A DNA stretch of 64,000 nt from Eledone cirrhosa (taxonomy: Eukaryota): contig OZ024742.1 in NCBI GenBank assembly GCA_964016885.1, positions 156,488,001 to 156,552,000 on the forward strand, written 5' to 3'. Within the stretch, counting starts at the first letter, position 1, and each line of letters begins with the position of its first letter. The notes under the pieces were generated by a model, which was given only the letters and a program-made list of their open reading frames with translations, ran no database searches and was not told the origin of the DNA. Made by a program: the position numbers and the translations under genes. Shown here piece after piece: positions 6,223 through 6,638 of the stretch.

Positions 6223-6638
6223 TATATATATATATACATATATATATATATATATATATATATATATATATATATATATATATATATATATATATATATA
6301 TATATATATATATATATATATATATATATATATATATATATTATATATATAAAAACAAATAACGAAACGAAATTAAAATTCGTTTCGCTTCTAACTCACT
6401 TTTGTATGACTGACGCTTAAACAATTAAGTTAAAGTGTACATCTACATATGTATACGGAAGTACTAGTATGCATATAAATACACATATGTATACATATGT
6501 ACATGTACCGAGCTTTTCACTAGACACTTTACAGTGAGTGTCCAGCTAGTCTGTATGTAAACACACAGACGAACCGGGTTTTAAAGTCATACGGGTTTTC
6601 AAGGAAACACACTTCCTCTATTCTCCAGAGAGCCAGAC

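Follow-up and report, generated by a model that had tools for sequence, protein, structure and literature searches.

Two 3′ end sites around a hairpin give retrozyme-like hammerhead repeats the tail signature of Penelope-like elements

Our analysis of a 64-kb stretch of DNA (hereafter the window) identifies two families of non-coding hammerhead repeats of the non-LTR retrozyme type, A and B, whose copies end at two sites bracketing a hairpin. This end pattern is the known tail signature of Penelope-like elements (PLEs), here on new retrozyme-like families. The original prediction had described one conserved terminus just beyond the hairpin; it is partly confirmed, since the observation is real but only half the picture, and the mechanism proposed with it is not new. 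Copies in the window have two end sites, form inverted arms with the tail on one arm, read through the ribozyme cut site and have no coding capacity. A and B are most likely non-autonomous repeats for which the RT/GIY-YIG protein of a PLE does the copying in trans, with internal start at two points flanking the hairpin. The new point is modest, namely that tandem retrozyme-like units carry the PLE tail footprint, which lends mechanistic support to PLE mobilisation.

Hammerhead repeats and their insertions

The A unit measures 470 nt and the B unit 442 nt, both with 37% GC; with unit positions numbered from the hammerhead cut, the two are homologous in an alignment running from about unit 185 through the ribozyme. 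Each full unit contains one type I hammerhead with helix I of 6 bp, helix II of 4–5 bp and helix III of 2 bp plus a palindromic loop (helix sizes taken from descriptor matches). The type I hammerhead descriptor matched 14 times in the window, against 0–1 times in 30 shuffles. In a rescan of 9.3 kb (1700–11000), the Rfam HH9 model fitted the three A ribozyme copies with E values of 6e-6 to 2e-4, all under the gathering score, at which Rfam gave no match in the whole window. The relaxed scan of the same interval returned 206 matches, mostly microRNA models on TA/TG repeats, which we treated as noise. As in retrozymes, two consecutive intact hammerheads are present, at 7236 and 7706, 470 nt apart. 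Coding capacity was absent from four-unit repeats of both families, the longest ATG frames being 64 aa in A and 47 aa in B. The orientation of the ribozyme tells which strand is the RNA, and on that strand the termini described in the original prediction are 3′ ends. The window as a whole has 33.6% GC, is rich in (TA)n arrays and repeats, and resembles non-coding animal DNA, possibly of the octopod kind.

The first A insertion comprises the following features.

6350–7967, both strands: family A insertion, two head-to-head arms, (TA)n flanks on both sides
6350–7133, RNA sense minus: left arm, unit 455 to 299, 1.7 units
7131–7967, plus: right arm, unit 335 to 231, 1.8 units
6350–6417, minus: optional 3′ tail of A, 68 nt, unit 232–299, at the left end and absent from the right end at 7967
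6361–6389, minus: tail hairpin, 11-bp stem, followed by a T-rich stretch up to the terminus
6220–6349, no strand: (TA)n array at the tailed end
7968–8019, no strand: (TA)n array on the side without tail (site 1, unit 231)
6627–6697, minus: type I hammerhead with a single change in its GAAA core, cut site between 6649 and 6648; Rfam HH9 E 1.8e-4 (under the gathering score)
7218–7288, plus: type I hammerhead, core intact, first base after the cut 7267; Rfam HH9 E 1.2e-5, below gathering score
7688–7758, plus: type I hammerhead, core intact, 470 nt past the previous one; Rfam HH9 E 6.4e-6, below gathering score

The remaining A and B copies are arranged as follows, site 1 lying just before the hairpin and site 2 just past it.

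61851–62403, both strands: second A insertion, ~88% identical to the first; the tailed arm, 61851–62366, is minus and spans 1.1 units (unit 250 to 299); the other, short and inverted, stops at 62403 (unit ~12) with no (TA)n there
61830–61835, plus: candidate 6-bp target-site duplication, left copy outside (TA)n, right copy 62403–62408; rough chance 0.02 over 12 loci
5272–5307, plus: B stub abutting (TA)n, its end at site 2 (unit 285)
8773–9676, both strands: B locus of two inverted arms, each tail-less and ending at site 1 (units ~233 and 229); hammerhead at 9345
10584–10960, plus: B single arm, from unit 349 across the cut as far as unit ~224 (site 1), with a hammerhead at 10647
18893–18930, plus: B stub, 38 nt, ending at site 2, tail-to-tail with the locus 18947–19446 across a short (TA)n
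18947–19446, both strands: B locus of two inverted arms between (TA)n flanks, tailed on the left (site 2) and tail-less on the right (site 1)
21913–23444, both strands: complex B locus in which two B variants meet with a 3-nt overlap (22497–22499), inner inversion at 23053–23101; site-1 ends 21913, ~23390 and 23401; hammerheads 22068, 22710 (degenerate) and 23147
39338–40365, both strands: B inverted locus that ends at site 1 on the left (unit 223) and past the hairpin on the right (unit 278), ambiguous inner junction 40190; hammerhead 39576 (minus)

Three tail-to-tail junctions (18893–18947, 23390–23444 and 8767–8782) place a short stub of 38, 44 or ~15 nt opposite a long arm across a short TA spacer. 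Such stubs could come from repeated insertion into one (TA)n or from multiple cuts in one event, and the third may be the fold-back of a natural palindrome. Unit ~137–170 of B seeds microsatellites: (TA)n, (TG)n and (TATG)n have expanded there independently in different copies (8854–8985, 9495–9600, 10807–10890, 19295–19393 and 22235–22328).

Two end sites bracket the hairpin

The outer 3′ ends of A and B fall just past the hairpin in 6/17 cases (site 2) and just before it in 9/17 (site 1); the other two are 62403 and the ambiguous junction 40190 (unit 410). Site 2 corresponds to unit 299 in A and 285 in B, and five of its six ends lie at one base. Site 1, at B-equivalent 220–233 and A 231, lies 52–68 nt upstream of site 2 and is spread over 13 nt; both sites align between the families. 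No end (0/17) lies within 10 nt of the ribozyme cut. A clustering of 15/17 ends in two 14-nt windows, a width picked after the ends had been seen, was equalled in 0/10,000 draws from all positions, 0/10,000 from 51 TA sites and 8/10,000 from 7 TTA sites. These ends were called by eye from alignments within one 64-kb window, and n is small. The weak low-complexity end at 5212 (local score 34) was included in a tally of 16/17 and left out of the final 15/17, the corresponding left 'arm' at 5197–5262 (low complexity, score 34) being discarded from the final count, and the ambiguous junction 40190 was kept as a miss.

The original prediction correctly held that A copies share their terminal nucleotide against (TA)n, at unit 299 (the matching bases are 6350 and 61851, its 6351 being off by one), and that this terminus is far from the ribozyme cut, 285–299 nt downstream of it. 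Its statement that B copies end at the homologous hairpin plus a T-rich tract agrees with 18930 and 18947 (both unit 285), overstates 40365, which stops 7 nt short, and had overlooked 5307. The further claim that the terminus defines the integration point fails, given the majority of ends before the hairpin, including 7967 of the very locus that it cited. Termini dispersed along the unit, or coinciding with the hammerhead cut, had been named as counter-evidence; the window contains neither pattern.

The hairpin was matched five times in the window and never in 100 shuffles; in the two terminal A copies it folds with z-scores of -2.5 and -3.7. It is moderately conserved in B, with 6.8% of cells off the majority, compared with 9–15% in most other regions and 23% in the T-rich stretch after it. 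Because the stem is made of 5-nt repeats and its A/B register is ambiguous, covariation between A and B is not claimed.

Replication of Helitrons and Helentrons stops at a hairpin about 11 nt ahead of the 3′ end, and the elements have a fixed 5′ terminus and a single 3′ end past the hairpin. The hairpin of A and B, 11–12 nt before the end, their T-rich end, their AT-rich targets and the inner microsatellite zone of B would suit a non-autonomous rolling-circle DNA transposon of this type, which is nonetheless extremely unlikely. The 5′ ends are dispersed rather than fixed, at 250, 335, 455 and ~447 in A and at 9, 21, ~53, 76, 89, 105, 185, 203, 247, 349 and 379 in B; the ends that precede the hairpin, the head-to-head arms that are the rule, and the presence in every full unit of a hammerhead whose strand agrees with the conserved end all depart from the Helitron pattern as well.

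The original prediction also explained the choice of terminus, by pairing of ttta/TA in the nicked target with the RNA beside the hairpin. Most ends do read TTA then TA, so that 2–5 nt could pair and may help priming, and (TA)3 or more lies at or next to the junction at 13/16 listed ends, partly as the element's own bases in some, 3/16 being without it; by a different criterion, a (TA)3+ run is found within 5 nt for 5% of the positions in the window. Yet a single terminus picked in this way is very improbable, since more than half of the ends use the other site. TA occurs at 51 sites in B and at a similar number in A. In the reference units, the sites that are used have just 2–3 nt in common with (TA)n (one B variant reaches about 5 nt, at position 223), while longer TA runs, up to 10 nt in B and 7 in A, are unused: the inner 10-nt run of B is passed by 11/11 B pieces covering it. 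The tailed end of family E (below) lacks TTA, and PLE reverse transcription, as published, begins at positions without homology to the cut DNA (PMC11167929). Pairing with TA therefore does not pick the site but may assist priming.

The two end sites could also arise if only the post-hairpin site were a start of reverse transcription and tail-less ends were cut or trimmed later by an endonuclease at the 5′ edge of the tail, recognised as DNA. PMC8557442 ascribes the tail to endonuclease-mediated resolution, and PMC11167929 cites earlier work in which the tail is required for endonuclease recognition of DNA. The fuzziness of site 1 relative to site 2, its position within a small inverted repeat in both A and B, and the palindromic main hairpin, which would fold as DNA too, are in keeping with such trimming. 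We consider it possible though unlikely: most site-1 ends adjoin (TA)n like site-2 ends, as primed ends should, and for the anole element both tail boundaries are RT starts in vitro (PMC11167929). A start of reverse transcription at either site by a PLE protein remains our preferred reading.

Inverted arms, template and flanking (TA)n

Head-to-head inverted arms with 3′ ends facing outward are present at 6/9 A/B loci. The same arrangement recurs in two hammerhead families unrelated in sequence to A and B, which we call D and E.

1730–2152, both strands: family D, inverted arms; left ends at unit 119–125 against (TA)n, right end with a ~35-nt AC-rich hairpin tail to unit 157
55751–55974, plus: second D copy, ending at the identical tail nucleotide, unit 157
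2529–3076, both strands: family E (hammerhead-like), inverted arms; left ends at unit ~40–48, right end with a ~80-nt tail and 8-bp hairpin, (TA)n on both sides

The tail lies on the right arm only at 1730–2152 and 2529–3076, and among A and B it lies on a single arm at 6350/7967, 18947/19446, 39338/40365 and 61851/62403 and on neither at 8773/9676 and 21913/23390. Across all two-arm loci (six A/B plus D and E, n = 8), it is thus on one arm in six, on neither in two and on both in none, a pattern not significant by itself (P = 0.22). Since four families show the end pattern within 64 kb, the genome should give a large pile-up. In D, helix I has a compensatory pair change between the two loci, both of which start (5′ end) at about one place, ~40 nt ahead of the ribozyme core. 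E has a hammerhead-like core with a long helix II and a palindromic helix III, and its 114-nt inner direct repeat at 2609–2837 suggests a template jump; a possible E-tail stub at 1650–1689 was discarded (score 25, within background).

A and B arms reach 1.7–1.8 units in length, and there are 12 passages across the ribozyme cut, six in A and six in B, the closest 5′ end stopping 8 nt short of the cut (39979). Together with the lack of 3′ ends at the cut, this supports the proposal in the original prediction that reverse transcription starts internally on an RNA longer than, or closed beyond, one unit. Internal initiation is supported, yet already published (PMC11167929).

These features suggest that a PLE protein may bind A/B RNA near the hairpin and nick AT-rich DNA, mostly (TA)n, the nicked ends serving as primers. 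Reverse transcription would then begin inside the RNA, just 3′ or just 5′ of the hairpin, and a start at one or other point would yield copies with or without the 56–68-nt tail. Priming on both DNA strands would give two arms with 3′ ends facing outward, and a template continuing through the ribozyme site, as uncut multimer or re-ligated circle, would make arms longer than one unit. The protein, the nicking, the use of both sites as RT starts and the role of the hairpin are what we infer from published PLE work. Purified PLE protein (Poseidon) cleaves and extends both strands of AT-rich DNA in vitro, starting at two internal stem-loop sites that match the genomic tail ends and are not homologous to the cut DNA, with uncut RNA as its main substrate (PMC11167929).

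Classic twin priming on a single RNA was set aside: just 2/6 A/B two-arm loci (6350 and 39338) have an arm whose outer end is close to where the other arm ends inside, so that separate templates or a circle fit better. Fold-back copying at 6350–7967 is ruled out, because each arm has twice a stretch present once in the other and neither can be a fold-back copy. The four partial units of this locus carry just 13 single-copy changes in 1,625 cells, from which we conclude that they were near-identical at insertion; this equally fits a circle or a homogeneous multimer as template.

A circular template has been proposed earlier (PMC4209133, PMC7229834). Alternatively, no circle was involved and the template would have been a linear read-through transcript left uncut (or template jumps recurred), the ribozyme having no role in transposition and the units being pLTR-derived tandem remnants; we place this only slightly short of an even chance. 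In vitro, ribozyme mutants left insertion unaffected and RNA-seq reads ending at the cut were absent (PMC11167929), and just 1/9 Xenopus retrozyme dimers cleaved (bioRxiv 10.64898/2026.07.22.740005). D and E have no full tandem unit in the window, and the joined B variants of 21913–23444 are only 75–90% alike, so that at least two templates or events, by switching of template or by repeated insertion, contributed there. A circle, on the other hand, would account for the few changes within 6350–7967 against about 12% between the two A loci, even if a homogeneous multimer fits too; the ribozyme is the best conserved region of B (4.1% of cells off the majority), and circular forms have been documented for the retrozymes of coral, mussel and axolotl (PMC7229834).

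The flanking (TA)n may itself be partly a product of insertion. The reverse transcriptase of PLEs is sister to telomerase, and by slipping repeatedly on U-A-U at the start site it could add TA repeats before the element copy. We regard this as improbable. Three A/B loci (10584, 18893 and 61851) have (TA)n on the 3′ side only, a one-sidedness that deletions at 5′ junctions could equally explain. At most loci target-site duplications are masked by (TA)n; the one junction-exact 6-bp candidate, at 61851–62403, sits exactly outside (TA)n and at the other junction, as expected if the array had been synthesised, but it is a single case with no such repeat at the other 11 loci. One array is moreover common to two elements (18930/18947), and PMC8557442 regards (TA)n as the target. 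If synthesis did occur, the 'microsatellite target bias' of such PLEs would partly be microsatellite production and retrozymes would be a source of genomic (TA)n, an idea that we did not find in print among titles and abstract starts.

Relation to known elements and other repeats

Published PLE insertions combine partial tandems with an inverted 5′-truncated copy, a 30–40-bp tail often at one end only and a (TA)n bias (PMC8557442), and like features are described for rotifer and fly elements (PMC3846280, PMC2377424). With the pLTR 'tail' of PLEs (the 34-bp repeat of Penelope, Poseidon_Ac/PAc, Adineta Pen2a), A and B share two alternative 3′ ends round a stem-loop downstream of a type I hammerhead (PMC11167929, PMC8557442, PMC3846280, PMC2377424), as well as a tail that is optional and often confined to one of two inverted arms, 5′ truncation at dispersed points, partial tandem copies and AT-rich/(TA)n targets. 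Four marks of PLE mobilisation are found: a hammerhead upstream of the 3′ end, the optional tail with two ends, inverted partial tandems with variable 5′ truncation, and (TA)n bias. Unlike these PLEs, A and B have no ORF, and their whole repeating unit is 442–470 nt; their ends lie 220–299 nt from the ribozyme cut, compared with about 85–92 nt in PAc (computed from PMC11167929), and their hairpin is AU-rich, only that of D, with a tail of ~35 nt, being AC-rich. An autonomous EN+ PLE would have an ORF with telomerase-like RT and GIY-YIG endonuclease, which A and B lack. Pfam gave no match to PLE RT or GIY-YIG in 144/210 window frames (those outside A/B copies, less some overlapping ones), so that the PLE partner is a predicted one. 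Several points tell against the PLE reading: the tails of A and B (56–68 nt) and of E exceed the published length, 2/17 ends are off-site, site 1 spans 13 nt and all Rfam hammerhead matches are below the gathering score.

Like metazoan non-LTR retrozymes (PMC7229834, bioRxiv 10.64898/2026.07.22.740005), A and B consist of short low-GC non-coding tandem units with one type I hammerhead each, and PLEs are proposed as the mobilising partner in both cases. Animal retrozymes have been linked to PLEs by shared ribozymes, co-occurrence and pLTR homology, the mechanism of mobilisation being left open (bioRxiv 10.64898/2026.07.22.740005). A and B differ in that their copies are 1–2-unit inverted arms in (TA)n and not long arrays. 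The main texts of PMC7229834 and bioRxiv 10.64898/2026.07.22.740005 contain neither 'tail' nor 'hairpin', and 'inverted' once, in a reference title; titles and abstract starts, in a survey whose scope took in few subscription papers, yielded no report of a tail on retrozymes. Non-autonomous Chlamys PLEs such as MRC1 (PMC8557442, PMC9977147) also have head-to-tail copies, heavy 5′ truncation and microsatellite targets, but they are green-algal, target (C)n/(CA)n and mostly lack a canonical hammerhead. A and B point to a candidate cis-signal of 56–68 nt and two start sites, open to the existing in vitro system.

Other repeats in the window have comparable settings. A partial tandem repeat at 5359–5640 and 5971–6222 (84% identical), in which no hammerhead was found, lies between the (TA)n arrays of the B and A insertions next to it and is possibly another PLE-derived family. 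A further family at 40432–41003, 47726–48156 and 56800–56919 forms inverted arms beside (TA)n, with no hammerhead by descriptor, and more inverted-repeat structures lie at 9688–10116, 52775–53892 (34-nt tandem arrays in both arms), 43856–43964 and 27481–27548. The direct repeat 20644–20924/21633–21913 (281 nt, 95% identical, ~990 nt apart) has a CUGA-GA...GAAA match and fails the hammerhead descriptor; its second copy adjoins a B end.

In the 144/210 frames searched, Pfam matched only an unrelated LINE-type RT (29.8–31.7 kb) and DDE transposase pieces (44.0–45.4 kb). The former belongs to a broken LINE-type element on the minus strand (29357–31699), with RVT_1 and endonuclease matches over several frames, and the latter to a broken DDE_1 transposase on the plus strand (43979–45420) with CENP-B/Tc5 HTH pieces, which we take to be pogo/Tigger-like. 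A 188-aa frame at 50814–51377 (minus) gave no Pfam match at E 0.01 and resembles a hAT-family transposase fragment. Finally, a SINE- or MITE-like dispersed repeat of ~190–200 nt is present in eight copies with 80–95% identity (12785–12990, 14466–14656, 28173–28553, 32776–32968, 33380–33558, 34308–34497 and 47325–47537).
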